A stretch of 47,097 nucleotides of DNA from the NCBI GenBank assembly GCA_048938445.1, contig JBHLME010000010.1, positions 1 to 47,097 on the forward strand. Direction: 5' to 3'. The translations under genes and the position numbers were made by a program. The DNA is from Promethearchaeota archaeon. GTDB lineage: Archaea > Asgardarchaeota > Lokiarchaeia > Sigyniarchaeales > SOKP01. The notes beneath the pieces were generated by a model. That model made no database searches. It was not told the origin of the DNA and was given only the letters and a program-made list of their open reading frames with translations. This document shows positions 647 to 25,783 of this stretch, in pieces (position 1 is the stretch's first letter; every line of letters begins with the position of its first letter).

Positions 647-1918
647 ATGAACGAGGAAATTGAAAAAAATATTAGATTTTTTAAATTGAGCTATTCAGGA
701 TTATTATTAGAACCCAAGGTAGACTCTGAGGAAGATAAATTAGAACTCTTTAATATAAATAATGTTATAGCAGTTCATGTGAAAGATAAAAAGCGAATGT
801 ATATTTGGGTTGGGAAGCATTCAACCCAAAGCTTACAATATTATATCTCCAAGATAAGAGCTATTATTTCTCGAGAATATTCTGATCTGGTAACGCTAAG
901 ATACATTCATACGGACTCAGGATCAGAAATCCCTGAATTTTTTGATTCTACAGAATTATCAAAAGATAAGTTACATGATCAATTGAAATTTCAAGAAAAA
1001 ATATTAGCACCAAAAGTATCCGAAATTAGTGATCTTAAAAATATGGCCGATGAGTACTTTATGGCCGAAGATTATGACAAAGTTATCGAAATTTCTCAAA
1101 AAATTATTGAATTGGCTGATGAGCTCGGAGATGAAGGACTTAAAAAAGATCAAAAAGAATTCATAAATGAAGCCCAACAAAGAGCTGGACTTAAAAAAAT
1201 AATGTTAAGTGCTGAGCAAGAATCTGAAGAAATCAATAAACAATTTATAGAACTTATCAATACTGATAAAATAATTGATGCTCACGACTTTATTAATGCT
1301 TTTAAATCGAAATATGAAGAAATTGATTTATCATCTATACCTAAAATTGATGAAATTCTTACGAATGAGAAACAAATTTGGAAGGCGTTTTTAACAAAAC
1401 AAGATGATCTAATTAATGAAATAAATGTTCTAGAAAAAAAAATTTTCACCTGCATTGAAAAACAGGATATTGCAGAAGCGGAAAAGAGTTTTAAGAAGGT
1501 TAAAGCTTTACTCGAGAAAATTATCGATGAAACAATACAAAATAAATGGAAAGACATTGAACAAACTGTTATGAAATCAAGAGCTGATTATGATGATATG
1601 ATCCAAAATTCGAAAAATACGGTTAAACAACTTCAGGAAATAATAAAAAAAAATGAAGAAAATAATGAATTAGAATTATTAATAGAAAATTGCCAGAATA
1701 TTATAACGCATTTAAAGTTAGTAAAGGATAATGCTTTACTAGATCAATATTCTCAATTACTAGAAGAATCACTAGAAAAAAAACGTCTAAACAATTTGGT
1801 AGAAGTTATTGATGATTTAAGAAAAGAAAGTAAGATAAAATTGAATGAAGGGAATTTAATTGAATGTTTAAAATATTATGATAAAATTCTAAATCAATTA
1901 AAGGATTTTATGAATTAA
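647..1918 (+). CDS. Gelsolin-like domain + helical/TPR-like repeat protein
   Basis: N-terminal RMYIWVGKHS...DSGSEIPEFF matches the gelsolin repeat consensus (YxWxGxxS...GxExxEF); remainder is charged helical-hairpin repeats paralogous to 1947-3746. Confidence 0.7.
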   Translation: MNEEIEKNIRFFKLSYSGLLLEPKVDSEEDKLELFNINNVIAVHVKDKKRMYIWVGKHSTQSLQYYISKIRAIISREYSDLVTLRYIHTDSGSEIPEFFDSTELSKDKLHDQLKFQEKILAPKVSEISDLKNMADEYFMAEDYDKVIEISQKIIELADELGDEGLKKDQKEFINEAQQRAGLKKIMLSAEQESEEINKQFIELINTDKIIDAHDFINAFKSKYEEIDLSSIPKIDEILTNEKQIWKAFLTKQDDLINEINVLEKKIFTCIEKQDIAEAEKSFKKVKALLEKIIDETIQNKWKDIEQTVMKSRADYDDMIQNSKNTVKQLQEIIKKNEENNELELLIENCQNIITHLKLVKDNALLDQYSQLLEESLEKKRLNNLVEVIDDLRKESKIKLNEGNLIECLKYYDKILNQLKDFMN

Positions 1919-1946: not shown

Positions 1947-3746
1947 TTGGAACCGAAAGATAACGAAAAACGATTAACTGAGGAAGAAAGAGCACAGATA
2001 AAAGCTCTTGAAAAGATTGATGAATTAATAATCGTTCAAAATAACCATTATATGTTGGGAGAATATGATGATGCAATTAAAATTACTGAAGAAATAATTG
2101 AACTTGCGAAAAAAGATAATTTGTTAGAACTTGTAAAAGAGCAAGAAGATTATATTCAACAGATGCTAGCTGCAAAAGATAAAAGTAAACGATTAGCTGC
2201 TCTTAAAGAATTAAGCGAAATGAAAAAGAAAAAAGTTATTGAATTATTAGAATCTGGAGAAATTTTGAAAGCACATGAAATTGTAGAAGATTTTAAGAAA
2301 GAATATGGTAATGAATTTAATTTGAAGAAAATTGCATCTGCAAGAACTTTCATTCAAAAAGAAGAAGATATATGGATTAAATTCATTAAAAAACAAGAAT
2401 CCTTGAAAGAAGAAATAAAGATTTTAGAAAAATTAATCATTAAAGCTAGAGATGAAAATGATATGATTGCACAGTCTAAAATCTTGGATCAAGCAAAACC
2501 TCTAGTTTTAAAGTACGTGATTGAGGATATAAATGAGAAATGGAGTATATATGAAAAGGAACATTCGGATTTTATAGGAATAATAAACGAAGAAATAGCG
2601 ATTTATGAAGAAAAATTTCTGGAAAATAAAGAAAATAATAAATTAAGCGCAGCAATTAATTATTGCGAAAAAATCATAGAAAACGCACAGAAGAGTGGTA
2701 ATGTAGAGGTCATAAATAAATTCACCCAAATAGTTCAAGATATGAAAAATCAGTTTGAAAGTCAAGCAAGCGAAAAAAATAAGATTCTAAAAGAAATACA
2801 AGAGAAGGCAAAACAACTTGAAAGCGCTATTAAGGTTGAAGAAAATACCCTCCCTCTAATCGAGGAATTTTCAATTAATGATCTCCTAGGTGACATTACT
2901 GGAGATATTAATGAGACATTAGATAAAATTGGAAATTTACTTAGTGAACACAGGGTTGAGATAAAGAAAGAAATTTCAAATAAAGCAGTTTTAAGATCTG
3001 CTTCGGGAGAAATTGTAGAATTCGATAAAGATATTGAAGTAAAAGAAGATAATGAAGAACCTACGAGTTATTCTGTCCAATCTGGATTTACTAATCCATT
3101 TGATGATATTATAGAAGAAGGTATTCTTACAGATCTCGTTCCATATAATTTTGAAATAACACAGGTTACTTATAATGGCGAATTGGTTCCTCAACTTCCT
3201 GATAAAAATTTAACCAAAGATGGTCTTGAAATAAATTGGAAATTAGAAAATATTCCCCCTAATGAAAAAGTAGAAGTTAATTATGATTTACGAAGACGTG
3301 TGTCTCGTACGATTATCTTCATACTTGAAAATCATTTAAAAATAATCAAAACACACTCAAATTTGAATTCTATCGATATTGAAGGATCTTATGACGTTAA
3401 AATTCCATTTACGAATTCATTTGGTTTAGTACTAAATGGAGTCGTAGTAGAAGATATAATCCCCCTATATTATCTTCACTTTGTAAAAGAACCTACAAAA
3501 CTTTTGCCTGCACCACCAACTAGCTCTAGTATGGGGGATTTAATAAAGTGGAATGTAGGTAAAATGGAAATGGAAACATTAAATTATCATTATCGACTCC
3601 TAGAAATTTATCGATTGGAAGAAATTAAAATTAAAGTTGATGAATTAGATACTAAAGGTGCTGAAGCTCTCAAGCAGGTAAATATTAACGAAGCCCTTCA
3701 TAACTTTGAGCAAATTAAGAATATTATTTCAAATTACCTTAAATGA
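1947..3746 (+). CDS. Helical-repeat protein with two tandem Ig-like beta-sandwich domains, no signal peptide
   Basis: TTG start 11 nt after GGTG Shine-Dalgarno; helical N-half similar to 647-1918; two internal repeats (TNPFDDIIEEGILTDLVP..INWKLENIPPNEKVEVNYDL / TNSFGLVLNGVVVEDIIP..IKWNVGKMEMETLNYHY) resembling DUF11/TRAP-beta-type Ig folds. Confidence 0.6.
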   Translation: MEPKDNEKRLTEEERAQIKALEKIDELIIVQNNHYMLGEYDDAIKITEEIIELAKKDNLLELVKEQEDYIQQMLAAKDKSKRLAALKELSEMKKKKVIELLESGEILKAHEIVEDFKKEYGNEFNLKKIASARTFIQKEEDIWIKFIKKQESLKEEIKILEKLIIKARDENDMIAQSKILDQAKPLVLKYVIEDINEKWSIYEKEHSDFIGIINEEIAIYEEKFLENKENNKLSAAINYCEKIIENAQKSGNVEVINKFTQIVQDMKNQFESQASEKNKILKEIQEKAKQLESAIKVEENTLPLIEEFSINDLLGDITGDINETLDKIGNLLSEHRVEIKKEISNKAVLRSASGEIVEFDKDIEVKEDNEEPTSYSVQSGFTNPFDDIIEEGILTDLVPYNFEITQVTYNGELVPQLPDKNLTKDGLEINWKLENIPPNEKVEVNYDLRRRVSRTIIFILENHLKIIKTHSNLNSIDIEGSYDVKIPFTNSFGLVLNGVVVEDIIPLYYLHFVKEPTKLLPAPPTSSSMGDLIKWNVGKMEMETLNYHYRLLEIYRLEEIKIKVDELDTKGAEALKQVNINEALHNFEQIKNIISNYLK

Positions 3747-3761
3747 TGTTACCATAAACAA

Positions 3762-5807
3762 ATGTCAGTTCCTTATAGTAAACCAATTATTTTTATTGCA
3801 TCTTGGAATAAGGAAATTGGAATTAAAATCGAAAATAATTTTCCTATATCGATTAACCTTGATTTGGAACAAATAGCAATGCAAATTTTTATCACTTATC
3901 AAAATTTCTTCTCTATTGAGGATAAAAACGAAATTAAACGGAGTTTTTTTGAAATTCCCATTAAAAATCTTATCAGAAAAGCAAAAATATTGATAGATTC
4001 TATTGTTGATGAGAGAAACAATGAAAAAATACCCTATATAGTGGTTATACTCTTTCCTGATTATATAATGGATAAAGTTATGGATAAATTTAATGATATT
4101 ATGGAACAAATAGGAACTGAATTTTTAAATAAGAATCTTATGCTTTTCTCTGATAAGTACGCAAAAATAACTGAATTACTATTATTGGAGCAGAAAGTAC
4201 AAGATAAAGAAATTATCATTAATGAGAATTATTCTTCAAATGATTCCGTACAAGACTTTAAGAAAGGAATAGAATTATTTTCAAAAAAGAGTTTCGAACA
4301 AGCATATTTTCTGATAAAAAAGGCCTTCTTAAAATTTAAAAGTGAAAATAATGTTAAACTTTTATTAGATTCTCTTTTCTTTATTGCTACCACATTATCA
4401 GAATTAAATAAATTTCAAGCAGCTCAAGAGTATTATGAAGAATTAGCATCATTAGCAAGTTCTTTAAACCATCAAAAATATCTTGAAACAGCTTTATTCA
4501 TGGTGGGTTTTTGTGCTTATAAAAGAGGAGAATATGAGGTTACTTTACAAAAATTCTCTTTATTAAATTCTTTAGATAAAAATTATATTAATAAATTTCA
4601 ATATTATTCCCTTTGGGGCCGAATTTTAAGATTAACAGGTCAATATGATAAATCCTTACAGAATTTGGAAAGTGCCCTTGATATTAGTGAAAAATTAGAG
4701 CTAACTCAAAAAGAAAAGGAAAATAAAGCTCAAATTATATTGGAAATGGGGCATATTCATTATAAAATGGCAATTGATGGTTTAAAAGCAAATTTCATTA
4801 TTAAAGATCAGTTTAATCCATATTTTCAAAATGCAATTAAATATTATGATGATGCTATAAGAATTTGGGAGGATTTAGAAAATTTTACTCGCCTTAAGAA
4901 TGTTTATCAACTAGTAGGAAATATATATGAAGTATTAAATGAGACAGATCGTGCAATCTCCTCCTATGATAAAGCGTTAAAGTATGCAGAAATGACCAAT
5001 GATGCATTAGGGAGGATGGAAATTTATAGTCTCATGGTTTATCAATATCAAAAGAATGAAGAATATGAAATCCTCATTAAATTTTTAGATGAAATACTCT
5101 CCAAATTAAGAGCATATGCTTTTATTGATCTTAATACCATTAGCAATTATCACATGCAACTTGGTAAATCTCTCATAAAGATTGGAAAGAAGAAAGAAGC
5201 CCTCTCAGAGTTATTAATCGCATTAAATATATACAATCAGTTTAAGTACCCTATTAAAGAAGGATTAGATACACTTCAAGAAATAATCAATATATATAAG
5301 CAAGATAATCAAGAAAATTATGTAAAATATTATGAAAAGCAATATAATGATTTGCTAGAGAAAATACAGAATTATAAAGCTCAACAAGCGATTTCTCTTA
5401 AATTTAGAATATTAAACATAATAAAAGAACTCTGGATTTTCACGAATGAAGGTGTTGAACTTTTATCAAGTGCTCCAGAATCAAAATTAAATCCTCAACT
5501 ATTTGGAGGTTTTATTTCTGCATTACAAGCTTTGAGTACTGAGCTCTCTTCAGAAAAATTAAGATCGGTCATGATAGGTTCATTTAAATATTCAATTTAT
5601 ACTGAGAAAGACTCTCCTATTTTCATCATTGGTAGATCAACATTACAAGCCAATACAAGTATTATTGAAAAAATTTTAAGAACTATTTTTCAAGAATTCT
5701 TGAAAAAATTTCACCCATTTTTAGAAGACTATGATGGAGACTCCTCGAGATTTCTAGTTTTTTTAAATACTATAGAAAAAATGACTGAAAAAGACCTTAT
5801 TTCTTAG
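3762..5807 (+). CDS. uDENN/longin - TPR - longin domain protein (paralog A)
   Basis: N-terminal IFIASWNKEIGIKI..FP longin-like strand; central TPR repeats; C-terminal LWIFTNEGVELL..NPQLFGGFISALQALSTEL..LRSVMIG longin signature. Confidence 0.7.
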   Translation: MSVPYSKPIIFIASWNKEIGIKIENNFPISINLDLEQIAMQIFITYQNFFSIEDKNEIKRSFFEIPIKNLIRKAKILIDSIVDERNNEKIPYIVVILFPDYIMDKVMDKFNDIMEQIGTEFLNKNLMLFSDKYAKITELLLLEQKVQDKEIIINENYSSNDSVQDFKKGIELFSKKSFEQAYFLIKKAFLKFKSENNVKLLLDSLFFIATTLSELNKFQAAQEYYEELASLASSLNHQKYLETALFMVGFCAYKRGEYEVTLQKFSLLNSLDKNYINKFQYYSLWGRILRLTGQYDKSLQNLESALDISEKLELTQKEKENKAQIILEMGHIHYKMAIDGLKANFIIKDQFNPYFQNAIKYYDDAIRIWEDLENFTRLKNVYQLVGNIYEVLNETDRAISSYDKALKYAEMTNDALGRMEIYSLMVYQYQKNEEYEILIKFLDEILSKLRAYAFIDLNTISNYHMQLGKSLIKIGKKKEALSELLIALNIYNQFKYPIKEGLDTLQEIINIYKQDNQENYVKYYEKQYNDLLEKIQNYKAQQAISLKFRILNIIKELWIFTNEGVELLSSAPESKLNPQLFGGFISALQALSTELSSEKLRSVMIGSFKYSIYTEKDSPIFIIGRSTLQANTSIIEKILRTIFQEFLKKFHPFLEDYDGDSSRFLVFLNTIEKMTEKDLIS

Positions 5808-5904
5808 ATTTTCCAAAATTTAAATAAATTTTTATAAGATTAGTATTATTTTGTAATAAAATTTAATTCACTAAAAATACCATTTACTAATTTAAGAGAT
5901 ATAC

Positions 5905-6861
5905 ATGCATTTAATGTTGATTACTTTTGATAGCCTTCTCGGTCCAAAAATTTATCTTACAGTACCGGATACAATATCAAATGAAAAATTGAAAGAGAGA
6001 ATTTCTGATTTTCTTAATTTAGATTTGGGGAAATCCTTTTTTGAAATTAATATAATCGAAGAAAGTTTAAAAACTTTCAATCTTTATATCGAAATCCCCT
6101 CAGAAATAGCAAGAGGGGGGATTGAAATGGCATTAATAAGTTTGATAACGGAAAAAAATTATAAAAGTTCATTATTTTATGATATATTAAAAGATACTCA
6201 AAAACAAATGTTAGAGGTAAAAGATCTTTATAAAGGATTTTATATGGATGATAAGATTTCAGATAGTCAAGTTGAGATTAAATATAAGGAACTTAAGAAC
6301 ATTTTAAATCAATCTTATGAAAAATGTGAAGGAGCAATTTCACATTCAACAATAGGGAATATATTAATTTTAGGAATAAATAAAGTAGGGAAAACATCGA
6401 TAATTAACCATCTTAAAGAAAAGAAGTTTTCTTCAAATATTAAACCCACATTAGCATTAACCTTAATAGAGCTGATTATTGACACTTATTTATTTAAAAT
6501 AGTTGATGTTGGAGGTCAGAAAAGATTAAGAAATCAATGGTGGTCATATACATCATCACCTGATGCTATAGTATTTGTTTTTGATGTAAATGATAAGGGA
6601 GAACGCTTAGATGATACAAAAGAAGAATTCTTAAAGATTCTCGCAAAGTTATCAACAAAATTAGAAAAGTTACCTATATTAATATGTGCTAATAAAATGG
6701 ATTTAGCTTCAGATAAAATTGATTTGGATTATTTTAAAGAGTTATTAATTCCAAAACAAGTAAAGCTTAACTATAAGTTACAGTTAACGAGTGCTATTTC
6801 AGGGGAAGGACTAGGAGATGGATTTAAATGGCTTGTCAAGAATTTAATGGAAATTTCATAA
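5905..6861 (+). CDS. uDENN/longin domain fused to Arf-family small GTPase
   Basis: G1 GINKVGKTS, G2 KPT, G3 DVGGQKRLRNQW (Arf-type), G4 NKMD, G5 TSAISGEG; N-terminal ITFDSLLGPKIYLTVP is a uDENN/longin beta-1 motif. Confidence 0.85.
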   Translation: MHLMLITFDSLLGPKIYLTVPDTISNEKLKERISDFLNLDLGKSFFEINIIEESLKTFNLYIEIPSEIARGGIEMALISLITEKNYKSSLFYDILKDTQKQMLEVKDLYKGFYMDDKISDSQVEIKYKELKNILNQSYEKCEGAISHSTIGNILILGINKVGKTSIINHLKEKKFSSNIKPTLALTLIELIIDTYLFKIVDVGGQKRLRNQWWSYTSSPDAIVFVFDVNDKGERLDDTKEEFLKILAKLSTKLEKLPILICANKMDLASDKIDLDYFKELLIPKQVKLNYKLQLTSAISGEGLGDGFKWLVKNLMEIS

Positions 6862-6894
6862 ATTATAGAATTAATAAGTTTATCGTGGGTAAAG

Positions 6895-8958
6895 ATGGTT
6901 TCAAATAATTCGGATAATATAAAAAAAACTTCAAATATTCTTATCTTTATATCTATTTGGGATGAAGAAGTAGGCCCAACTATAGTGGATATCCATCCAA
7001 GGGTAAATATAGGGAATATTGAACAAATAACAATTCAAATTTTTCAAGCATATCAATTTTTTTGGGATTCTCCTGATAAACCTTATAATAGAGCAAAAAT
7101 GGTCTTGCCATTTAGAAATATCAACAAAAAAGCAAAAATCTTCTTTGATATCATTCCTAATCCCGATATTCGAGGAGGATTTCAACCTTTTAATGTTGTA
7201 ATACTTTGTCCTGATTATTTTTCCGATGAAAACTTATACATTTATGATGAGATTATGCTTAAAATTTCAAAAGACTTTGCCAAGCAACAAAATATTCGCC
7301 TTGAAAACTACTATCAGGAAGTTTATGATTTACTTGCATTAGAAGAAATTAATAAAAATGAGCCTGTTGAATTGGAAGATAATTATTCATATACAATTGC
7401 TATGGATGACTTTCAAGCAGGAATAAAATTATTTCAAACAAGAAATTATAAAGAAGCGTATAATTTATTAAAGAAAGTCCTGATAAAGTTTGAGCAAGAA
7501 AACCATAGAAACCTAATAATGGAAGTAGTGTATCTCATTGCATCCTTATTAGCTCAGCAAAAAGAATTCAACAATTCATATGAATTCTTTTCAAGATTAG
7601 AAAGTCTTTCAATTGAATTAGAACATCAAAAATACTTGGAAATAAGTAGATTTATGAAAGGATTCTGTGCATATAAAAATGAAAATTTCGTTGAAGCATT
7701 GGAGAACTTGAAAAAAATTGAAATTTTATCATCACAAAATATCAATAAAATACAATATTTTATGATGCATGGAAATATCCTCCAACAATTTAAACGATTA
7801 GAAGAGTCCCTAATCTCCTATAAAAATGCATTAGATTTAATACATAATTCACCTCAAATAGATAAATTAAGAAAACAACAAGCACACATACTATACGAAA
7901 TTGGCTATGTACACTATAAAATTGCCGTGCAAAACCTTAGGAATTTAGGATTGGATAAAATGCAAGATAATGAAACCAACTTTAATGAAAGTATAAGGTA
8001 TTTAGATGAATCTGTAAAAATTTTAACAAAATTAAATGATTACGATTTTTTAATCCAAGTATATCAGTTAATAGGAACAATTTTCGAACTTTTAGGTAAT
8101 ATGGATAATTCCATTTATTATTTTAAAGAAGCAATGGATCTAGCAATGAAAAACAAGAGATTTGGAAAGAAGCTAACAATCATTACTAAATTGATTCAAA
8201 AACAAGCTGAATTGGAAAAACATGAAAAGAATGTTAAAATTATCGAAAATTTATTGAAAGAAATTGATAATCTCAAACTAGTAGATTTACATACAATCGC
8301 TACTTTTCATGTTAAGTTAGGAGAATCTTTAATTAAAATTGGAAATAAAGAAAAGGGAATTAAGGAAATGATAGAAGCACATGAAATTTTTAAAACCTTC
8401 CAAACACCTGTATATAATGATCTCCTATTATTATCCCAAATTGTGAACTTCTTCACAGAAATAAAAGATTTTGAAAAAGTAACTTATTATGGAGAAGAAA
8501 TCAATAAAATCTCAAAAGAACTTCATGAATTTTCAATCCAAAAACCAAAATTATCCTCTCCATTGCATACTATCGGAGAAATATGGATTTATTCAACTTC
8601 TACGGGGGTTACATTATTTAGCTATGCTCCTGAGACTCAAGTCGATCAAGACCTCCTCGGAGGTTTTTTAACAGCAATACAGCAATTCAGTTTAGAACTA
8701 TCGCAAAAAGAATTCGATTCCATGGTAATTGGTAATGATTTATTTATGTTTTATAAAGAACCTAACATGGAATTTGCTATATTTGGCAAAGCAAGTAACA
8801 AGACACCCCCAGAACTAGCAAAAAGAATATTGACTATTATATATAAGAGATTTTGGAAAGAATATGCTCCCTCAATAAATGATTTTAAGGGGGATATTAC
8901 TCCATTTATCACTTTCAAAGATATCATTGAATCTCTTGATTTAACATTAGAAATGTGA
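6895..8958 (+). CDS. uDENN/longin - TPR - longin domain protein (paralog B)
   Basis: ISIWDEEVGPTIVDIHP longin start; collinear with 3762-5807 over the full length; C-terminal IWIYSTSTGVTLFSY..DQDLLGGFLTAIQQFSLEL. Confidence 0.7.
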   Translation: MVSNNSDNIKKTSNILIFISIWDEEVGPTIVDIHPRVNIGNIEQITIQIFQAYQFFWDSPDKPYNRAKMVLPFRNINKKAKIFFDIIPNPDIRGGFQPFNVVILCPDYFSDENLYIYDEIMLKISKDFAKQQNIRLENYYQEVYDLLALEEINKNEPVELEDNYSYTIAMDDFQAGIKLFQTRNYKEAYNLLKKVLIKFEQENHRNLIMEVVYLIASLLAQQKEFNNSYEFFSRLESLSIELEHQKYLEISRFMKGFCAYKNENFVEALENLKKIEILSSQNINKIQYFMMHGNILQQFKRLEESLISYKNALDLIHNSPQIDKLRKQQAHILYEIGYVHYKIAVQNLRNLGLDKMQDNETNFNESIRYLDESVKILTKLNDYDFLIQVYQLIGTIFELLGNMDNSIYYFKEAMDLAMKNKRFGKKLTIITKLIQKQAELEKHEKNVKIIENLLKEIDNLKLVDLHTIATFHVKLGESLIKIGNKEKGIKEMIEAHEIFKTFQTPVYNDLLLLSQIVNFFTEIKDFEKVTYYGEEINKISKELHEFSIQKPKLSSPLHTIGEIWIYSTSTGVTLFSYAPETQVDQDLLGGFLTAIQQFSLELSQKEFDSMVIGNDLFMFYKEPNMEFAIFGKASNKTPPELAKRILTIIYKRFWKEYAPSINDFKGDITPFITFKDIIESLDLTLEM

Positions 8959-8998: not shown

Positions 8999-10909
8999 AT
9001 GGTTGAAAAAAATATTAATTCAATTGGACAAGTTTTTACTCCAGATTACATCGCTGAATTTATGGTAAAGAACGCCTTAAATTTCATCCCTAATAAAAAG
9101 TTAAAAGTTTTGGAACCATCAGTAGGAGAGGGTGTATTCTTAAAATATTTAATCCAATATAATATCATAGATATAACTGCTTATGAAATAGATTATAAAT
9201 TAGGTCTTAAACTTTCACTGGAATATCCCAATGTGCTTTTTAAATTTGAAAATTTTTTAAGTGCAGATAGTTCTGAAAAGTTTGATCTAATCATTGGTAA
9301 TCCTCCATATTTAGGACAAAACTATAATGCTGAGATATTCCAAGAATATGTAAAACAATTTCCCATATGTGCTAAATATTTTGTTGGAAATATGGATTTG
9401 TTTTATTTTTTTATCCACCAAGCAATAACAATGCTCAAACCAAGTGGAATACTTTCATTTATCACGACAAACTATTGGATTACAAAATCTAAAAAAACTG
9501 GAATAAAATTATTGAAACCCCACATATTAGAAGAATGTTTCTTACTCCAATATATCGACTTATCAGATTTAAAGTTATTTAAAAATGCTAAAGGACAACA
9601 TAACTGCATTTTTATCCTTGAAAAAAAAACTCTTGAAGAAAAAAGCAAGAATGTGAATAAAAATATAGACATAATCAAAGTATTTAGTAATCATAGGATT
9701 GATACCAATGATCAAGATTCAAATAAAGAAATTTTTCGAGATTTACTTGAAGAAAATTGCTCTAACAATGTAGTTCACTATGAATCTGCTTTGACGAACA
9801 ATGAATTGAGTCGATTGGGTAACTGGAATTTACTTAATCCTGAGGATGTAAAAAATATGGTTAACAAACTCGAAAAATTCTGCATTAAAAATGGAAAAAT
9901 CCAATACCTGAAAGATTATTTTCTTATTCGAAATGGTATTATTTTCATACAAGATGATATTTTCATATTAAAAAATGATGAAAATCTACAGATTAAAGGT
10001 AAAGAATTCTTTGTTAGAATAGATAATCAATACTATAAACTTTCTGAAAATGAAAAAAAAAGATTGAAAAAAATTTATAAGAGCAAGGCCATAAAACCAT
10101 TTGGACTGAATAAAAATGATTACGTAGGATATGGGATATTCTTTAATAAAAAGGAATTTAATCAATTTAAACCAGAAATTAGAAACGAGAAATATCAAGA
10201 GAAGTACCCAATTCTAACAGCATATTTAAAACAATTTGAAGAAATTTTAAATAACATACTAATAAATGCTAAGGAAAATCCTTTAGATTTGTTTTTCCCA
10301 AGAAGGGGCGCCTTTATCAAGTATAAAAGTGAGAATTCCCTTGAAAAAATTATCGATGTAGAACCATTATATGAAAATGCCCCAAAAATCTTTTTCAAGT
10401 TTATTTCTTCTAAAAATCTTTTTGGATTTTCTAATGGCCCCTATTATGCAACATCAGATACATACTTTCTTTGGTCTAAAGTCCCAGCTAAAAAACTTGA
10501 TTATCCTTTCCTTCTAGCTTATTTAAACTCAAAAATAGTAGATTTCTTATTTAAAGCAAAAAACATTACTATTAAAAGAAGTAAAACAAAACTCGAATAT
10601 GGATTACCAATACCAAATTTGGACCTATTTAATTCTGAAGAAGAGTTATCAATATTGACAATAATAAGAGTTCTTTCAAATTACTTAATATATCTAGATA
10701 ATATAGATTTTAATGTAGAAACTATTAGAACATTAACAGCTTTACCCAATATCTTGGAAATAGATTATGAAAACTTAAAAATTCAGCTTATTTATGCTAT
10801 CAAAAATAAAGATAGGAATTTTATTGTTAAAATCATTGACCTACTCTTTTTTCATTTGTTTAAGTTAGACCAAAGTAAAATTAATTATCTCGAAAAAAAG
10901 TATTACTAA
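8999..10909 (+). CDS. N6-adenine DNA methyltransferase (gamma class, TaqI/Eco57I-like)
   Basis: GQVFTP motif X, VLEPSVGEG motif I, IIGNPPY motif IV, C-terminal TRD-like region ending in LLAYLNS. Confidence 0.9.
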   Translation: MVEKNINSIGQVFTPDYIAEFMVKNALNFIPNKKLKVLEPSVGEGVFLKYLIQYNIIDITAYEIDYKLGLKLSLEYPNVLFKFENFLSADSSEKFDLIIGNPPYLGQNYNAEIFQEYVKQFPICAKYFVGNMDLFYFFIHQAITMLKPSGILSFITTNYWITKSKKTGIKLLKPHILEECFLLQYIDLSDLKLFKNAKGQHNCIFILEKKTLEEKSKNVNKNIDIIKVFSNHRIDTNDQDSNKEIFRDLLEENCSNNVVHYESALTNNELSRLGNWNLLNPEDVKNMVNKLEKFCIKNGKIQYLKDYFLIRNGIIFIQDDIFILKNDENLQIKGKEFFVRIDNQYYKLSENEKKRLKKIYKSKAIKPFGLNKNDYVGYGIFFNKKEFNQFKPEIRNEKYQEKYPILTAYLKQFEEILNNILINAKENPLDLFFPRRGAFIKYKSENSLEKIIDVEPLYENAPKIFFKFISSKNLFGFSNGPYYATSDTYFLWSKVPAKKLDYPFLLAYLNSKIVDFLFKAKNITIKRSKTKLEYGLPIPNLDLFNSEEELSILTIIRVLSNYLIYLDNIDFNVETIRTLTALPNILEIDYENLKIQLIYAIKNKDRNFIVKIIDLLFFHLFKLDQSKINYLEKKYY

Positions 10910-18439: not shown

Positions 18440-20731
18440 TTAATTTTTCTTTAGAACCGGTGATTCTTGAGTTTTTAAAATGGGTAAGGTAAAGAAAAAT
18501 TTAGATCCCTTATTTCTTCCATGAGATTCCGCCCACATTTTTCCACCATGCAACTTGATGATTTTTTTTGAATTATACAAGCCCAAACCCAAACCATCGA
18601 TCCCTACATCCCATTCTTTCCCATATCTTTCAATTTTACCAAATCTTCTAAATAATTGCTTGCTTTCATCTATAGTTATTCCAATTCCATTATCTTCGAC
18701 TGAAATTATATAATATCCTTCTTCAATACTAGATTTTACTTTAATTAAACCATTTGGAGGGGTATATTTTATCGCATTTATAATTAGATGTGAAATGACT
18801 TTATAAATATCTTCTTTTATAATTTCGACATTAATGTTTTCAGCGATATCAACGATTATTTTCAAATTTCTGGCTTTTGCTAAACCCTGAAGTTCATTAA
18901 CACAAAAATTAATTAAGAATGAAAGATTTTGCTTAGTTTTTTTAATACTGATACCATTAGATTTTAATTGTGAAGTTTTTAAGAGGTTATTTACTATTAA
19001 TGCTAATCTATTAGCCCCTTCATTTATTTCCTTCAAAATAGATAGGACTTCATCATCAAATTTATCTGCATGTAAGTCTAATAAAAGATCTGCAAATCCT
19101 TTTATAGAAATTAGGGGTGTATTTAGTTCATGTGATGTTCTTTTAATCAATTCAGATTTTAAATTGCTGACTTCTCTTAATTCTTGTTCAGTTTGTTTTT
19201 TATCGGAGATATCTATTATGGTGATCAGTATTGCATGTTTTTCTTGATACATTATGGGTTTTGCAGATATTTCTATCCATTTTTCATCTCCCTTCCCTGT
19301 TTTTATTTTAAAAGGGAAACTTTCTATTGATTTAATATTACCATTAATAAAATTATCTATTAAGCTTAAAAATAAATTATAATCTTGAGAATTAAGGAGA
19401 CTGCGATAATCATTACATGTCCAATTCCTTCTTATATCGAAAGTATAACCCAGAATTAAATCAATGGCTTTATTTGCGTATTTCACTTTATTATCTTGTA
19501 GTATGGCAACTCCAATTTCCGTTTCTTCAGCAATAGTTCGAAATTTTTCTTCAGATTCTCTTAATTTTTGTTCTGCTTTTCTGTGTTCTGAAATATCAAT
19601 TGTGGTTGAAATTAAATATGGTTCATTATTAAGATTTATAATTTCTGCTGATAGGAGCATCAATAATCTCTCTCCCGATTTGGTAACTGCTTCCGCTTCA
19701 AAATTTTTAATTCGACCTTGTTCCTTCAATATTCTTACCATTTCACGTCTTTGTTCAGGATTTGCCCAAATATTTAATTCTGAGGTTGTTTTTCCAATAA
19801 GTTCATCTATATCATAACCTAAAACTTGTTTAAAGGCATCGTTAGCATTAATAAATCGACCTTCATTTAAACTTACTATCGACATTAAATGAGGACTAGA
19901 CTGGAAAGCTTTTGATAGTTTTTCTTCAGATTCTCTTAAACTTTGTTCAGCTTTTTTTTTTTTGGTAATATCTTGAATTATTGCTTGAAAGTAATCTTGT
20001 TCTCCAACTTTTATGAAGGATATTGACGATTTAATAATTGAGATATTTCCATCTTTTTTTTTTATTTTCAATTCTAATGGTTCTAAATCATGCTTTTTAG
20101 TTATATTTTGAAACCTCTCTTTTAATGTATGAACATTGTCCTCCGAATAAAAAGGTAAATCCAAATAGTTTTGACCAATTAATTCCTTAATAGAATAACC
20201 AAAAATTCTCTCAGTGACAGAATTACACTCAATAATTTTTCCTGTAAGATCAAGCAATATAATAGCATTTGAGGACTTTTCAAATATATTTCTATATTTC
20301 TCTTCAGATTCTCTTAATTTTTGTTCTGTCTTTTTTCTTGCTGTAATATTTTCTCCAGAGCTCAAAGTTCCAATAATATTTCCATTCTCATCATGTAATA
20401 ATGTATTGTGCCAAGCAATTAGTTTTTCTGTTCCATTTTTGGTAATTATGGTATTTTCATGAAATTCTTCAGATTCAACCAAACCTCGCATAATTGTGCC
20501 AAAAACTTTCTTAACTTCTTCTCTATTGTGTTCAGGAAGGCATGTATCAAACCAATTCTTACCCAATAGTTCTCCTTCTTCATATTCAAGAATTTCATGA
20601 CCTTTTTTATTTAATAACATTATATTTCCATTTCTATCAAGAGCTAACAATACAACTCCCGCAATATCTAGATATTGTTTTTCATTTCTTACTTCCAATA
20701 ACCCTTGATCAAGCTCATTCAAAATTACCAA
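18440..20731 (-). CDS. Soluble sensor histidine kinase with four PAS domains
   Basis: Four PAS/PAC repeats ending (D/N)I(T/S); H box SHELNTPL, N box NAIKY, DNGIG and GLGLGL G boxes; no TM. Confidence 0.92.
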   Translation of the reverse strand: MVILNELDQGLLEVRNEKQYLDIAGVVLLALDRNGNIMLLNKKGHEILEYEEGELLGKNWFDTCLPEHNREEVKKVFGTIMRGLVESEEFHENTIITKNGTEKLIAWHNTLLHDENGNIIGTLSSGENITARKKTEQKLRESEEKYRNIFEKSSNAIILLDLTGKIIECNSVTERIFGYSIKELIGQNYLDLPFYSEDNVHTLKERFQNITKKHDLEPLELKIKKKDGNISIIKSSISFIKVGEQDYFQAIIQDITKKKKAEQSLRESEEKLSKAFQSSPHLMSIVSLNEGRFINANDAFKQVLGYDIDELIGKTTSELNIWANPEQRREMVRILKEQGRIKNFEAEAVTKSGERLLMLLSAEIINLNNEPYLISTTIDISEHRKAEQKLRESEEKFRTIAEETEIGVAILQDNKVKYANKAIDLILGYTFDIRRNWTCNDYRSLLNSQDYNLFLSLIDNFINGNIKSIESFPFKIKTGKGDEKWIEISAKPIMYQEKHAILITIIDISDKKQTEQELREVSNLKSELIKRTSHELNTPLISIKGFADLLLDLHADKFDDEVLSILKEINEGANRLALIVNNLLKTSQLKSNGISIKKTKQNLSFLINFCVNELQGLAKARNLKIIVDIAENINVEIIKEDIYKVISHLIINAIKYTPPNGLIKVKSSIEEGYYIISVEDNGIGITIDESKQLFRRFGKIERYGKEWDVGIDGLGLGLYNSKKIIKLHGGKMWAESHGRNKGSKFFFTLPILKTQESPVLKKN
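19548..20328. repeat. 28-bp direct repeat encoding the inter-PAS linker (19548-19575, 20301-20328 exact; 19923-19950 with 3 mismatches)
   Basis: TCTTCAGATTCTCTTAATTTTTGTTCTG read at both positions; encodes EQKLRESE. Confidence 0.8.
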
Positions 20732-20878
20732 ACCCTTGCATTTTTACAATTGTAATTTTGGTTCAGGTTTAAGGTATGATCCTTAGACAGCATAAACATA
20801 TAAGTTAAGTTTCTATTTAATTGTTACATTTTTAACTTAAATACCTGTTTGGATAAAAGAATTTAATGAGTATGGGTA

Positions 20879-21475
20879 ATGAAAAAAGCAATTATTCTTC
20901 AAAAAATTGGAATTATCGATAAAGGAGTCATAATAGATCTTAGAAATGATCTAAAAAAATATTTTAAAGAATATATTAAAACTATTGAGTATACTGACAA
21001 TTCAATGCTATTGGATGAAAGTTTCTACAACTCGAAAGAAAAGAAGTATGATGGAACAGAAATACTTAAAACATTAAAAAATGTGTATGATAAAAGTGAA
21101 TTTTTAAGTGTATTAGGATTAATAGATGAAGATATAAAATCTAAAGAAAGAAAATATATATATGGTATAACAAAATCCAAAAACCAATTTTATACAATGA
21201 AAAATGAGTTTTTTAATAAACCTGGGTTGGCAATTGTTTCAGTTTTCCGTTTAAGAGAGAGTTTTTACTCTAGATCTGAAGATAAATCTTTATTTAGAAA
21301 AAGAGTATTAAAAGTAGCTATTCATGAATTAGGACATTCTTTTGGATTAAAAAAATGTAAAAATGAATGTGTAATGCATTGTAAAAGAAGTTTAGCGGGT
21401 GTTGATAGGAAAACTATGAATTTTTGCGAAAAATGTCAAAATTATTTAAGAGATTTATTTTCTAATTTAAATTAG
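20879..21475 (+). CDS. amzA: Archaemetzincin-family zinc protease (variant active site)
   Basis: HELGHSFGLKKCKNECVM...FCEKC: HEXXH plus Cys4 zinc finger and Met-turn. Confidence 0.8.
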   Translation: MKKAIILQKIGIIDKGVIIDLRNDLKKYFKEYIKTIEYTDNSMLLDESFYNSKEKKYDGTEILKTLKNVYDKSEFLSVLGLIDEDIKSKERKYIYGITKSKNQFYTMKNEFFNKPGLAIVSVFRLRESFYSRSEDKSLFRKRVLKVAIHELGHSFGLKKCKNECVMHCKRSLAGVDRKTMNFCEKCQNYLRDLFSNLN

Positions 21476-21491
21476 AATTATATTTTAAATA

Positions 21492-23360
21492 TTATTCTGC
21501 TTGCGGAATTAATATCGTGAAATTCGTTCCTTTTGAATGATCTCCTTTTACTCTATCTTCAATCCAAATCTGCCCATAGTAACTTTCTATTGCTTTTTTT
21601 ACAAGAGATAATCCTACACCCATCCCTTTAGAAAGAATATCCTTTTTATACTCTCGAACAAAAATTCTTGCTTTCTTATTATCAGGGATCCCTATTCCAT
21701 TATCAATTAACTCTATCTTAATAAATTTTAAACCTTCTGATTTAAACTTGGATAATTTAATCTTGATCTCGATAATTTCATTATTGTTATACTTAATTGA
21801 ATTAATTATGATGTTTTCAAATACGTCCAATAACAAGCTATTTGCTAAAACAAAAAAATCCTCATTTTTACTCTCAATAGCTATCAGAATTTCTCTATTT
21901 TTATAACTCTTTTTGATATATTTAATAGATTCATCTAAGATATCATTAATTTTTAAAACTTCAATGGTCATATCTTGATCTTCAAATTCTGAAAGTTTTT
22001 GAATATTAGTAATTAATTTTCCCCCTCTTAGAACTTGATCTTTTATTAATTCATACATCTCATCTAATTTTTTTTTATTTTCTTGAAAATCATCAATTAA
22101 TTGGATGGCCGAACCAATATTGTTTAATATATTATTGAAATCATGTGCCACTATTTCTTTTAAAAAAGTGACTCGATTAAAAGCTTTCCTATACTCCTCC
22201 TCTGATTGTTCTAATCTTTGTTCTGCTTCCTTACGATCAGTAATGTCATGAAAAATATTTAAAACTGCTATTTCTCCTTTGTATATTATAGGTTTGGAAA
22301 AAATTTCAGTCCATTTTATTTCTCCACTTTTATTAATTATTCTCAGAATTAAATCAAATATGAGATTTTCTTTTTTCCTTTCTCTGAATTCCACAAATAC
22401 ATTCAACAAATTAGGCAAATCTTCTGGATGGACCAATTTATTTAAATCTTTTGTTTCCCAAGAATTCATTTCATCCCATGAATATCCAAATATTTCAAGA
22501 GTTTTATCATTTGCATATTTTATTCCATTTTGAATGATAAATATTCCCATTAATGATTGTTCACTTATGCTCCTGAATATTTCTTCGGATTGTTTTAGTT
22601 TTTGTTCTGTCATTTTCTTTCTTGAAATATCTCTTAATGAAGCAATAAAACCTATTATATTTCCTTCATCATCATAATAATTCTTTGAAGAGCTGGATAG
22701 CCATACATAATGACCGTTCATGTGGCGTGCTCTAAACTCTATGTCATCAAAAATATTTTCCATGTTTTCTGAGAGATTTTTAATTGCATTTTTGAAAAGA
22801 ATCATTATTTGTTTGAAATCATCTGGATGAATTAAATTAAAAATCTCTTTCATTATAATATCTTCGGGCATTCCTAATATTTTGGTTAGCTGAGGTGAAA
22901 TATTAATTTTATTTCCTTCAAGAAGAAATACAATTATCGCATCTTTAGTATTTTCTACGATATCTCTGTATCTCTTCTCCGATTCAAATAATTTTTTTTC
23001 GGATTCTTTATGCTGTGTAATATCAATAGCCAATTCTAATCTAACTTTCTTCTCGGCCTTCCAATCTATCGCTTGATCTATGCAATGATACCATCTTTTA
23101 ACATTTTCATTATAATGTTCCCATATATAAGGTGAGATTGGATATTCACCAAATAATTTATCATTTGTACAAAAAGAACACGGAGAATCTAAATTTTGGA
23201 GAACTTTATAACATTTCTTTCCAATTATATTGTTTGAAAATACTTCATGTACTTTCTCATTTGCATATATTATTTCATAGGTTTCGGGATCAGAGATATA
23301 GACTATTTGATCCATTTTATCAAAAATGCCCTTAAATTTGATATCGATAGAGTTATTCAT
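21492..23360 (-). CDS. Soluble sensor histidine kinase with three PAS domains
   Basis: PAS repeats; H box AHDFNN, NSIKY, DNGIG, GMGVGL. Confidence 0.92.
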   Translation of the reverse strand: MNNSIDIKFKGIFDKMDQIVYISDPETYEIIYANEKVHEVFSNNIIGKKCYKVLQNLDSPCSFCTNDKLFGEYPISPYIWEHYNENVKRWYHCIDQAIDWKAEKKVRLELAIDITQHKESEKKLFESEKRYRDIVENTKDAIIVFLLEGNKINISPQLTKILGMPEDIIMKEIFNLIHPDDFKQIMILFKNAIKNLSENMENIFDDIEFRARHMNGHYVWLSSSSKNYYDDEGNIIGFIASLRDISRKKMTEQKLKQSEEIFRSISEQSLMGIFIIQNGIKYANDKTLEIFGYSWDEMNSWETKDLNKLVHPEDLPNLLNVFVEFRERKKENLIFDLILRIINKSGEIKWTEIFSKPIIYKGEIAVLNIFHDITDRKEAEQRLEQSEEEYRKAFNRVTFLKEIVAHDFNNILNNIGSAIQLIDDFQENKKKLDEMYELIKDQVLRGGKLITNIQKLSEFEDQDMTIEVLKINDILDESIKYIKKSYKNREILIAIESKNEDFFVLANSLLLDVFENIIINSIKYNNNEIIEIKIKLSKFKSEGLKFIKIELIDNGIGIPDNKKARIFVREYKKDILSKGMGVGLSLVKKAIESYYGQIWIEDRVKGDHSKGTNFTILIPQAE

Positions 23361-23497
23361 GATTTATAGAAGTATTAAAAAATTCGAATTTATAACAAGC
23401 TAAACAAATATTTGTTCCAAATTGTTAGAAAAACAAGTTATATTTATTTTTTCAGAAATCGATAAATCGATCAATAATGACATATTAATCATAGTTC

Positions 23498-24520
23498 CTA
23501 GAAAGGTTTTTTAATCAAATACCTGTTGAGGAAAGTAATACAGAGTTCCTCACCAATCTTCATGATTCTCTTATTGTTTCTTACTAATTTAACTAATTCA
23601 TCTGGTATATTTTCTAATCCGTGATAAGCACCAGCTAAACTACCTCCTATCGCTCCAACTGTATCACTATCACCACCTGCCGTTGAAAGTTCAAATATAC
23701 AATCCTTAAATGAATTTAACCTTTTTAAAAAAATGAAGATTGAGCATGCAACAGTACTCATTGCAAAAGGATGGACGAATGCTTTTCCTATGTAATCTTC
23801 AATAAAATAAGGAGACTTTACACCTGCTTGTGAAAATTTTATTAAACCCGCGTCAATTGATAAATGAAGATTGTTTTTAACCTTGGTTAATACTTTACTA
23901 AATTCTTTCCAATGACGATCTTGTGATCCTGATATAGATGAGATTATTACATTAAAAAAATCATTTATAGAAAATCCAATTTTAGGTTCTTGGAAAATTA
24001 AATAAGAAATAGCCCGAGCAATAAGAATTGCACCAGCAGATGCCGCTGGATGAGAATGAGTTATTTCGCTAGAAATTTTAGATGCTTTAATCAATCCTTC
24101 AAGATCTCGACAATAAAACAATCCAATTGGGGCGATTCGCATTATTGTTCCGTTTCCTCCAGAATTAGAGGCCGCTTCTTTCCATTCTATACCATATTTT
24201 AATTTATTAATAGCACTCAAGCAACCATAACCTGGACCTATTGGTGGATCATCAAGCCATAAGATAAATTCGTTAATAAAATTGTTTAGATTAAATCCAT
24301 TACCTCGAATTAAAGCCTGTGCGGTATGAAGTGTCAACTGTGTATCATCTGTATATGTCTTAAATAATTTTCTATGATTTTCAATATAGTTTTCAAAATT
24401 GTCAAATTTAGATTGAATTTCTTCTCTAAGTATTCCTTCAAAAGGATGACCAAGGGTATCTCCAATTCCGACTCCCATTAAAGAGCCTTTAAATTTATCT
24501 AAGTAATTAATTTTCATCAT
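23498..24520 (-). CDS. ADP-ribosylglycohydrolase (DraG/ARH family)
   Basis: GDTLG, YTDDT, GNGTIMRIAP, SEITH and GGDSDTVGAI motifs. Confidence 0.92.
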   Translation of the reverse strand: MMKINYLDKFKGSLMGVGIGDTLGHPFEGILREEIQSKFDNFENYIENHRKLFKTYTDDTQLTLHTAQALIRGNGFNLNNFINEFILWLDDPPIGPGYGCLSAINKLKYGIEWKEAASNSGGNGTIMRIAPIGLFYCRDLEGLIKASKISSEITHSHPAASAGAILIARAISYLIFQEPKIGFSINDFFNVIISSISGSQDRHWKEFSKVLTKVKNNLHLSIDAGLIKFSQAGVKSPYFIEDYIGKAFVHPFAMSTVACSIFIFLKRLNSFKDCIFELSTAGGDSDTVGAIGGSLAGAYHGLENIPDELVKLVRNNKRIMKIGEELCITFLNRYLIKKPF

Positions 24521-24567
24521 TATTTTAGATTATATTAATTTCTCAAAAATTTAAAAGGATTACGTAT

Positions 24568-24930
24568 TCAAAAAGAGATAATTTCCTTGATTTTATTTAC
24601 TAAACGTTCAAGTGAAAAGGGTTTATCAATAAATCCCACTGAACCAATTGCTATAGCTTCTTCATGAACTGTTTTATCAGCACTAGCAAATATTATTTTT
24701 TGGCTGGTATGAATCTTTAAAATTTCTTTTGTAGCTTCAATTCCATTCTTTACTGGCATTCGATGATCCATTAGAATGATATCGGGTTTATCATTAAAAA
24801 CTTTAAACATCTCAACTGCTTCAGCACCATTATTTGCTATACCTATGACGGAAAATCCAACTAAATCTAAAATTTTCTTATATAACAGTTGAATACTCTT
24901 ATCATCTTCTACAATGAATACAGTCGTCAT
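24568..24930 (-). CDS. Single-domain response regulator (receiver only)
   Basis: IVEDD, ILMDHRMP, FASA, DKPF; ATG at 24930 gives the normal receiver start. Confidence 0.92.
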   Translation of the reverse strand: MTTVFIVEDDKSIQLLYKKILDLVGFSVIGIANNGAEAVEMFKVFNDKPDIILMDHRMPVKNGIEATKEILKIHTSQKIIFASADKTVHEEAIAIGSVGFIDKPFSLERLVNKIKEIISF

Positions 24931-25170
24931 GACGAAAATTTCTTCTCCCACAGCATTAGATTGAATGATATACTAGACTAAATATTAATCATCAATTCAG
25001 TTTTTAAATTTCTTATTTAAATCAAGTTTATTGTTACTTTATAAAAATATTGCTTCCCTATACCACTTTTATAAAAATATGTTTATTTAATATTTACTAA
25101 AAATATTATTTTTTTTAATATAAAATAATTCACTAATGTTGAAATCTTTTGTATATGCAATAAAAACACT

Positions 25171-25560: not shown

Positions 25561-25783
25561 TCTATTTTCCTTGTTAAATTGCTCAAAAAAAGAATTAATT
25601 GTACAAATCAATAATAAAAACAAGTTTATTTAAGTTTTTTTTTTTGCCATTCATATTATTTTTTTACCACAAATCATTAATAAAACAAAATGCAATAATC
25701 AGCGAAAATTCTTAAATAAGGAAAAAATAAATTTTAAAAATTCTTAGAATTATTATTTAAGAGGAATTTATATAGATGATATT

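Follow-up and report, generated by a model that had tools for sequence, protein, structure and literature searches.

Two longin-TPR-longin paralogs as candidate regulators of the Arf-like GTPase encoded between them in a Loki-group archaeon

Nutrient and membrane-traffic signalling in eukaryotes relies on three GTPase-activating protein (GAP) complexes built on longin domains, namely FLCN-FNIP, GATOR1, and C9orf72-SMCR8. Papers of 2020-2025 have described look-alike longins and Arf-like GTPases in Asgard archaea, whose partners and native regulators stand as unidentified in the available parts of those papers (PMC12290439; PMC11914678). Does a genome of this group encode such a regulator next to its GTPase? 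We consider this question for a contig of 47,097 nucleotides from a Promethearchaeota archaeon (JBHLME010000010.1, assembly GCA_048938445.1; hereafter called the window), in which the gene for an Arf-like GTPase (G) lies between those for two paralogous proteins (A and B), just as an earlier note on this DNA had said; all three are on one strand. That note proposed A and B to be a catalytic/non-catalytic GAP pair of the FLCN/SMCR8 type acting on G. The features concerned are as follows, where TPR is the tetratricopeptide repeat and AlphaFold2 (AF2) models are given with their predicted local distance difference test (pLDDT) and predicted template modelling (pTM) scores.

3762..5807, + strand: paralog A, open reading frame of 681 aa, Pfam matches to TPR families only, 32% identical to B
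Residues 1-150 of 3762..5807, + strand: degenerate N-terminal longin of A
3819..3824, + strand: Gly20-Ile21 of A at the position of the GP motif, which is lost (alignment, motif table)
4008..4028, + strand: loop DERNNEK of A (residues 83-89) at the position of the B arginine loop, holding Arg85
Residues ~546-681 of 3762..5807, + strand: C-terminal longin of A, probably of the Mon1/Fuzzy type
5905..6861, + strand: G, open reading frame of 318 aa, longin plus Arf-like GTPase
5905..6348, + strand: N-terminal FLCN/NPRL2-type longin of G (residues 1-148; AF2 pLDDT 91.7, pTM 0.86)
5941..5946, + strand: GP motif of G, Gly13-Pro14
6112..6114, + strand: Arg70 of G, invariant
6349..6861, + strand: Arf-like GTPase domain of G (residues 149-318), with switch-I Thr182 and NKxD
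6373..6396, + strand: P-loop of G, Gly157-Thr164
6517..6519, + strand: Gln205 of DVGGQ in G
6895..8958, + strand: paralog B, open reading frame of 687 aa, Pfam matches to TPR families only
6895..7365, + strand: N-terminal longin of B (residues 1-157; AF2 pLDDT 87.9, pTM 0.82)
6958..6978, + strand: Trp22-Asp23...Gly27-Pro28 of B, WD and GP motifs in the loop joining strands 1 and 2
7171..7173 (CGA), + strand: Arg93 of B, candidate arginine finger in the loop joining strands 4 and 5
8548..8955, + strand: C-terminal longin of B, probably of the FUZ/MON1/HPS1 first-longin type (residues 552-687)

A and B are paralogs over their full length (32% identity, 676 columns, E 3e-117 in BLASTP), and each is composed of an N-terminal longin, a TPR solenoid, and a C-terminal longin apparently of the Mon1/Fuzzy type. 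The N-terminal domain of B (B-head) was modelled with AF2 from residues 1-157 and a 32-row alignment, and its elements (strands 16-23 and 27-34, helix 42-57, strands 67-73, 78-88, and 96-106, and helices 112-131 and 137-154) follow the strand-strand-helix-strand-strand-strand-helix-helix order of the longin topology. By Foldseek, the best PDB matches were a Lokiarchaeota longin (8yqg), chains of SEA/GATOR1, the active FLCN GAP complex, and Lst4; aligned with VIA-align, the members of Foldseek's list gave Z scores of 14.8 (8yqg_B), 12.9 (6nzd_H), 12.6 (6ulg_L), 12.5 (8dhb_J), 12.0 (Lst4), and 11.4 (C9orf72-SMCR8). When 48,161 chains were searched with VIA in an unbiased way, the first four rows were 6nzd_H (FLCN-FNIP2; 12.9), Lst4 (12.0), 8yqg (11.8), and C9orf72-SMCR8 (11.4), and the next three were 6ulg_N (10.9), GATOR1 8fw5_C (10.7), and 6lt0_B (10.3). 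The residue range of 2-268 suggests that the chain matched in 6nzd and 8dhb is FLCN itself. The model of B-head thereby appears nearer to the longins of GAP complexes than to those of SNAREs, adaptors, or TRAPP and to roadblocks; the margin is nonetheless modest, because VAMP7, DENND1A, and Sec22b rank next at 10.3-10.2, with the DENN-type, TRAPP, and Mon1-Ccz1 longins lower in the lists at 8-10 and roadblocks at about 8.5.

The remainder of A and B sets them apart from those complexes. No DENN domain was found in either protein, the Pfam matches after the head being TPR families only and the C-terminal domain being a second longin, and A and B are therefore not orthologs of FLCN, FNIP, SMCR8, or C9orf72. 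Of the proposed FLCN/SMCR8 type, the kinship of the N-terminal fold is supported in silico for B and the longin-DENN architecture is not. The heads of A and B match no Pfam family, and a search of full-length B against PDB sequences with phmmer gave just designed helical proteins and TPRs (E >= 0.029). We also considered A and B as ordinary TPR proteins with a chance RGG, which was rejected because the head is a separate, confidently modelled longin and its motif is kept across architectures. The C-terminal domain recurs in over 20 paralogs within the genome. Fuz_longin_1 (PF19036) of Pfam hits three stand-alone paralogs at 25.6, 20.7, and 14.3 bits, all below the cut-off of 26.1, and matches neither A nor B; residues 552-682 of B, in their Atlas model, resemble (template modelling score, TM, 0.84) an archaeal FUZ/MON1/HPS1-longin cluster, 48% of whose members carry PF19036. 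Variants of the architecture were also seen: three proteins of the B clade (P0015, P0016, and P0019; columns 700-985 of alignment A1) have a Cys-rich, zinc-finger-like C-terminal extension and a lysine-rich tail of short repeats, and members of 535-564 aa at loci L043, L044, and L046 (genomes G038, G032, and G028) have no N-terminal longin and keep the TPR and the C-terminal longin.

What distinguishes A from B is a pair of loop motifs. Both peptide strings given in the earlier note are present: FDIIPNPDIRGGFQPFNVV is the translation of window 7144-7200 in B, where 7171-7173 is indeed the CGA codon of Arg93, and DSIVDERNNEKIPYIVVIL is that of window 3996-4052 in A (the 681-aa frame at 3762-5807). 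The residues concerned are Trp22-Asp23, Gly27-Pro28, and Arg93-Gly94-Gly95 in B, whereas in A Gly20-Ile21 is present and RG is missing. The arginine of A was said to be one residue out of register, and this depends on the alignment, since MAFFT places it one column or one gap off Arg93 while BLASTP aligns Arg85 with Arg93; in either case, Arg85 is not conserved in the other seven proteins of the A clade. A GP motif beside the arginine finger, in the loop that joins strands 1 and 2, is a hallmark of FLCN, NPRL2, SMCR8, and C9orf72, and is lacking in FNIP2, NPRL3, and non-GAP longins, according to the available part of a recent paper, which also reports Asgard longins with both GP and the arginine and leaves the partner GTPase open (PMC12290439). 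Arg93 of B would be the putative counterpart of the eukaryotic fingers.

The motifs were counted on 39 full-length family members placed in a quick IQ-TREE tree, whose rows came from a protein search, the genomes of relatives, and GTDB contigs. Left out were a B fragment of 100% identity (P0001), truncated proteins (P0022 and P0023), one of another architecture (P0024), genes at contig ends (L053, L055, and the first gene of L048), and the forms at L043, L044, and L046 that have no N-terminal longin; P0018 and P0021, identical to the rows of L049 and L051, were merged with them. The A clade comprises eight rows with a support of 100 in the Shimodaira-Hasegawa-like approximate likelihood ratio test (SH-aLRT). 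GP is found in none of these eight, whereas it is kept in 29 of the 31 proteins of the B/single-copy clade; likewise, an arginine at the column of B Arg93 is found in 0/8 and 25/31, respectively. Trp22 and Gly27 of B are invariant, and Pro28 is kept in 29/31. The claim that one paralog keeps the arginine loop and the other has lost it is thus borne out at the level of whole clades, where the contrast exceeds chance; we attach no statistic to it because kin rows are not independent.

The two genes also travel together. A-type and B-type genes are adjacent in the window and at L039, L047, L048, L049, L050, L051, and L052; seven of eight A-type genes adjoin a B-type gene, and the eighth, at L045, is cut by the contig end. 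With a B-type neighbour in nearly all cases, A appears to depend on B, and the two proteins may pair. The family itself is patchy: 22 homologs of B were found at 38-49% identity, and full-length matches to A occur in 6 of 41 related genomes (that of the window, G000, included), with four further genomes having forms without the head or a partial match only. In the same genus, G004 holds an A-like stretch of 45% identity with nine stop codons (C366:4941-5855), either a decaying copy or an assembly fault, and no full-length match to A was found in the other four genomes.

Would G be a plausible target? The Arf family of Pfam matches residues 152-313 (E 1.1e-33; 116.6 bits against a cut-off of 22.3), and the best PDB sequence matches are Arl6, Arl3, and Arf1. 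An assignment to the Rag GTPases was rejected, since Gtr1_RagA gave 33.8 bits versus the 116.6 bits of Arf. The P-loop, Thr182, DVGGQ with Gln205, and NKxD are all conserved, being invariant or at least 90% kept among 21 sequences (G and 20 homologs), and G should be a suitable substrate because the catalytic Gln205 and all the G-motifs are retained. The N-terminal amphipathic helix of the Arf family was not found in G, where residues 1-148 form a longin instead.

The complex was predicted from residues 1-150 of A, 1-157 of B, the whole of G, and GTP, with a separate, unpaired alignment for every protein. The heads with GTP docked on G with an ipSAE of 0.65 (0.57, 0.65, and 0.70 in the runs), and all three controls scored 0.00; the runs share at least 92% of the contacts, with a partner pLDDT of at least 85. 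The mark used for ipSAE is reached by 116 of 157 solved complexes and by 2 of 215 mismatched pairs, counts that apply only roughly here, because the calibration covered neither custom unpaired alignments nor a ligand carried along, and the ligand is not part of the score. In the predicted complex, residues 22-29 and 92-96 and helix 1 of B touch Asn159-Lys160 (P-loop), 178-187 (switch I, with Thr182), and Gln205-Leu208 of G, while residues 17-22, 34-44, and 85 of A touch G 185-187 and 214-215 on the switch-II side. The Arg93 loop would thus sit in the interface; B lies over the nucleotide in the model, a geometry to be expected of a longin GAP platform.

Furthermore, B-type heads occur well beyond the scaffolds. 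A profile search with B-head among 1.84 billion proteins gave 321 representatives at E <= 0.001 (236 at <= 1e-10), of which 150 among the matches listed were classified with queries cut from this genome; Arg is kept in 130/150. They divide as follows.

36 of 150: TPR scaffolds, Arg kept in 24/36
24 of 150: fusions to a response-regulator receiver (REC), Arg kept in 23/24
19 of 150: B-type head directly behind an Arf domain, 16 of them also with a G-type longin in front, Arg in 19/19
71 of 150: the rest, Arg kept in 64/71, with no other domain detected except for two that have only a G-type longin and/or a PAS/kinase match

Nine of the 12 TPR scaffolds without the arginine are also without GP. 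The genome under study has its own examples of the fusions. In a protein of 949 aa (G000:C177:12865-15714, - strand, locus L003) with the order longin-Arf-longin-PAS-PAS-HATPase, a G-type longin stands in front of the Arf domain and a B-type longin with intact GP and RGG behind it, and the whole gives the impression of a GTPase/longin module coupled to a sensor kinase. Receiver-longin proteins are encoded at C46:1845-2735 (+), C247:12275-13195 (-), and C216:16746-17633 (-), all of which keep the arginine (as RSG in C216), and in L049 a fusion of a receiver to a B-type longin (4372-5088, - strand) lies just upstream of the A-B pair.

Taking these results together, we favor the reading that B acts on G-type Arf-like GTPases as a GAP with an arginine finger, or at the least as a regulator at their nucleotide face, and that A assists it; we give this a probability of roughly 0.45. 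A and B would be paralogous scaffolds in which a TPR solenoid separates an N-terminal longin of the FLCN/NPRL2 type from one of the Mon1/Fuzzy type, and the two N-terminal longins would together make a platform for docking to the nucleotide face of G; related Arf-like GTPases in other genomes would be docked likewise. B would be the active subunit, with its GP and Arg93 loops reaching the P-loop and the catalytic Gln205, and Arg93 would most likely be the finger that speeds GTP hydrolysis. A, devoid of GP and the arginine, may serve as a degenerate partner that helps to hold the GTPase, by analogy with FNIP and NPRL3 beside FLCN and NPRL2. The pair proposed in the earlier note is in this way favored by the folds, the clade-specific loss of motifs, the adjacency of A and B, and the predicted docking, and is held back by the linkage of G, by the variation at Arg93, and by an arginine in G itself.

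Several points indeed weigh against this proposal. A G-type gene stands between A and B in only two of the eight A-B loci (the window and L051), or in three if L049, where G is convergent and beside B, is counted as well; at the other five none was found in the flanks examined, so that the placement of the GTPase between the paralogs holds here and in L051 only. No small GTPase of any kind was found in the examined flanks of L039, L040, L041, L042, L047, and L050, nor of the A-B pair in L048, and G013, which has an A-B pair, gave no ortholog of G at E <= 1e-25. Arg93 is not invariant, being L, P, K, G, or absent in 6/31 proteins of the B/single-copy clade (L041, L042, L050_4273, P0004, P0008, and P0011), two of which have no GP either; among the Arf-fused copies, GP is kept in only 6/19 even though the arginine is in 19/19. 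The B-head profile found no eukaryotic GAP longin among PDB sequences (its top match, a beta-glucuronidase at E 0.047, was taken as chance). The docking score, obtained outside its calibration as noted above, may reflect the likeness to solved complexes of FLCN, GATOR1, and C9orf72-SMCR8, and a platform for a guanine nucleotide exchange factor (GEF) would look similar. Longin and roadblock platforms that occupy the same GTPase face are, moreover, more often GEFs or scaffolds.

In favor of a link to GTPases, there are also other settings in which such heads meet GTPase genes. In G027, the best ortholog of G overlaps tail-to-tail with the gene of a 318-aa protein whose B-type head has both GP and RGG, and the same pairing is seen in G029 by match coordinates alone. 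Lokiarchaeum ossiferum is a cultured strain. Its genome (CP104013.1) has an Arf-family gene directly after the single-copy gene (E 2.7e-26). Among nearby small GTPases, a Rag-like gene is found in L052 and a Ras-like gene in L056.

Alternatively, the longin platforms of A and B may bind the GTPase without being GAPs, acting instead in nucleotide exchange, as a scaffold specific for one nucleotide state, or as an effector, with the Arg and GP loops serving binding or stability. The first longin of the FUZ/MON1/HPS1 type forms GEF heterodimers in eukaryotes, and the C-terminal domain of A and B appears to be of that type; DENN-type, TRAPP, and Mon1-Ccz1 longins are present lower in the same fold lists, and the predicted interface on the P-loop and both switches would suit a GEF equally. 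The losses of Arg93 in six proteins and of GP in 13 of the 19 Arf-fused domains point in the same direction. On the other hand, the combination of GP and the loop arginine is specific to GAP longins and absent elsewhere, as stated in the available part of the paper (PMC12290439), the arginine is present in every GTPase-fused copy, and chains of GAP complexes are the top structural neighbours. GP and Arg have also been lost together in the A clade, as a dead catalytic site would lose them. We thus regard a non-GAP role as rather unlikely, although it is the strongest competitor of the GAP proposal.

A different doubt concerns the residue rather than the activity. The earlier note overlooked that G carries its own FLCN/NPRL2-type longin (G-head), and because this has GP and the invariant Arg70, the finger may not be that of B. 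The working arginine would then be Arg70, in cis or across a G dimer, or the longin of G would pair with the head of B or A, in the manner of the single-chain longin-Arf-longin fusions, and A and B would each bind a G instead of one another. In its AF2 model, G-head has the same order of strands and helices as B-head, and the top rows of its VIA search are 8dhb_J (Z 13.5), 6nzd_H (13.4), 8yqg_A (12.7), and GATOR1 chains (12.1-12.2); longins of GAP complexes thus rank ahead of the other folds for G-head just as for B-head. Ser66, Arg70, and Gly71 are invariant in 21/21 sequences, and GP is at least 90% conserved. The G-head profile has NPRL2 as its best match among PDB sequences, over the GP strand and with a weak E of 0.049; hhalign of B-head with G-head brings their GP motifs, and likewise their RG motifs, into register (E 4e-4, probability 35%). 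This alignment of the G-head profile places the GP of NPRL2 at residues 20-21, and if the NPRL2 finger is Arg78, as we take it to be, its distance from GP is close to the 56 residues between GP and Arg in G. Longins of both the G and B types flank one Arf domain in 16 of the 150 representatives. In L051, two tandem genes of the G type (5552-7493; 296 and 323 aa) stand between the A-type and B-type genes, and such a pair would fit one GTPase per scaffold subunit. Against Arg70 as the finger, the face of the GTPase is taken by A-head and B-head in the predicted complex, where the longin of G meets them through residues 45, 87-89, and 92 only, and an unrelated protein in place of B brought the score to 0.00. 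A-B pairs also occur without a G-type gene nearby (L039, L047, and L050). This alternative is hence unlikely in our judgment, and less likely than a finger from B.

The first 11 kb of the window is made up of six same-strand genes with short gaps between them in the list of open reading frames. Besides A, G, and B, they are:

647..1918, + strand: U1, 423 aa, helical/coiled-coil, opening the same-strand run; open reading frame with no Pfam family above threshold
1947..3746, + strand: U2, 599 aa, N-terminal half helical and C-terminal half beta-rich; conserved neighbour upstream of the A/B family
8999..10909, + strand: DNA methyltransferase of the Eco57I/TaqI type, 636 aa, starting 40 bases past B

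The G+C content of the DNA is 26-35%, and the closest database proteins carry the label Promethearchaeota, the Loki group of Asgard archaea. U2 has no Pfam match, and its look-alikes in the Atlas are weak (DUF11-like, TM 0.31-0.40, feature scores <0.8); the repeat region of U1 is also present in U2-like proteins of related loci. Genes of the U2 type are the steadiest neighbour of the A/B family, being found at ten loci: in the window, beside A/B-family genes in L041, L045, L047, L050, L054, and L056, and beside the forms devoid of the head in L043, L044, and L046. The U2-type protein may be a cargo or an anchor of the scaffold. Elsewhere in the window (18440-25623 and 42579-43718) are three PAS histidine kinases, a stand-alone receiver, and an ADP-ribosylglycohydrolase, which are ordinary for the group, and no connection of these genes with A, G, and B is visible.

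One might also imagine that the heterodimer of A and B runs the whole cycle of the Arf-like GTPase, the N-terminal longin pair being the arginine-finger GAP, the C-terminal pair the exchange factor, and the TPR solenoid together with U2 tying both to a cargo or membrane site. We consider this a long shot. If true, a single scaffold would be a prokaryotic forerunner of both the eukaryotic longin GAPs and the tri-longin GEFs, and an Asgard Arf would for the first time have a native regulator assigned to it. Very unlikely, finally, is that the GTPase gene is an incidental insertion and that A/B and U2 form a TPR-based scaffold of another role with no dedicated GTPase client: adjacency to U2 is commoner in the family than adjacency to a GTPase, six of the loci named above have no small GTPase in the examined flanks, and GTPase genes of MK-D1 generally lie outside longin operons in the available part of Tran et al. 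(PMC10933270), but B-type heads adjoin a G-type or Arf gene in several different contexts in addition to the 19 direct fusions, and the complex prediction passes with its controls at zero.

How, then, do A and B compare with known systems? FLCN-FNIP (Lst7-Lst4), GATOR1 NPRL2-NPRL3, and C9orf72-SMCR8 share with them the longin fold, as the top structural neighbours of B-head, and the presence of GP and a later-loop Arg in one subunit whose partner has neither, just as FNIP2 and NPRL3 lack GP in the available part of the paper (PMC12290439); the predicted docking, in which two longins meet an Arf-family GTPase at its switches and P-loop, would be a further likeness. In contrast, A and B have a TPR solenoid and a second longin in place of a DENN or NPRL2-type C-terminal domain, B-head has no sequence-level match to the eukaryotic proteins, the client G has a longin of its own at the N terminus, and the GAP role of A and B is that of a candidate only. 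MglB-MglA and Mon1-Ccz1/TRAPP are similar in that a dimeric alpha/beta platform meets the switch face of a small GTPase (Z 8-9 in the B-head lists), and B-head ranks closer to the GAP longins than to any of these. Mon1-Ccz1 and TRAPP act as GEFs, and MglB is not known to provide an arginine finger. The archaeal longin 8yqg, from a Lokiarchaeota Roadblock-Longin protein and crystallised as a dimer according to the entry title, is the best or near-best match of B-head (Z 14.8 or 11.8) and is close to G-head (12.7), but differs in its roadblock plus longin architecture and has an identity of 14-15%; no paper was found for this entry.

Part of this is already in print: Asgard longins of this domain class, the occurrence of GP and Arg in them, and the fusions of longins to GTPases and to two-component domains. 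Asgard longins of the FLCN/SMCR8 type or NPRL2-like (PMC12290439; bioRxiv 10.1101/2020.10.19.343400) belong to the same domain class with GP and the arginine, and the published papers, as far as their available parts go, do not settle on a client GTPase. Fusions of NPRL2-like longins to two-component domains as well as longin-GTPase fusions are described in the accessible portion of Liu et al. (bioRxiv 10.1101/2020.10.19.343400), and both of these published fusion types are present here, in the C46 and C177 proteins and in G. Longin-GTPase fusions are similarly reported for Prometheoarchaeum MK-D1 in what is accessible of Tran et al. (PMC10933270), and the longin-Arf/Rag-like architecture of G has its like in the consulted parts of PMC10933270 and PMC11914678, neither of which assigns a regulator. 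The latter, in the same part, states that no native Arf GAP is identified and that two C9orf72-SMCR8-like candidates are without Arf-binding regions (PMC11914678). In the accessible main text of the Asgard longin and GTPase literature, supplements aside, we found neither a longin-TPR-longin pair of catalytic and degenerate paralogs nor the cluster with U2 and a longin-Arf gene or the predicted ternary complex.

In conclusion, the locus offers a defined, clonable trio of an Arf-like GTPase, a motif-bearing longin scaffold, and its motif-less paralog. Since native regulators of Asgard Arfs stand as unidentified in the available part of the literature (PMC11914678), the trio is of practical value as a test case, and it is a candidate for the native off-switch of an archaeal Arf. 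If the GAP role of B holds true, the split of longin GAPs into a catalytic and a degenerate subunit would have arisen, or have arisen in parallel, in archaea.

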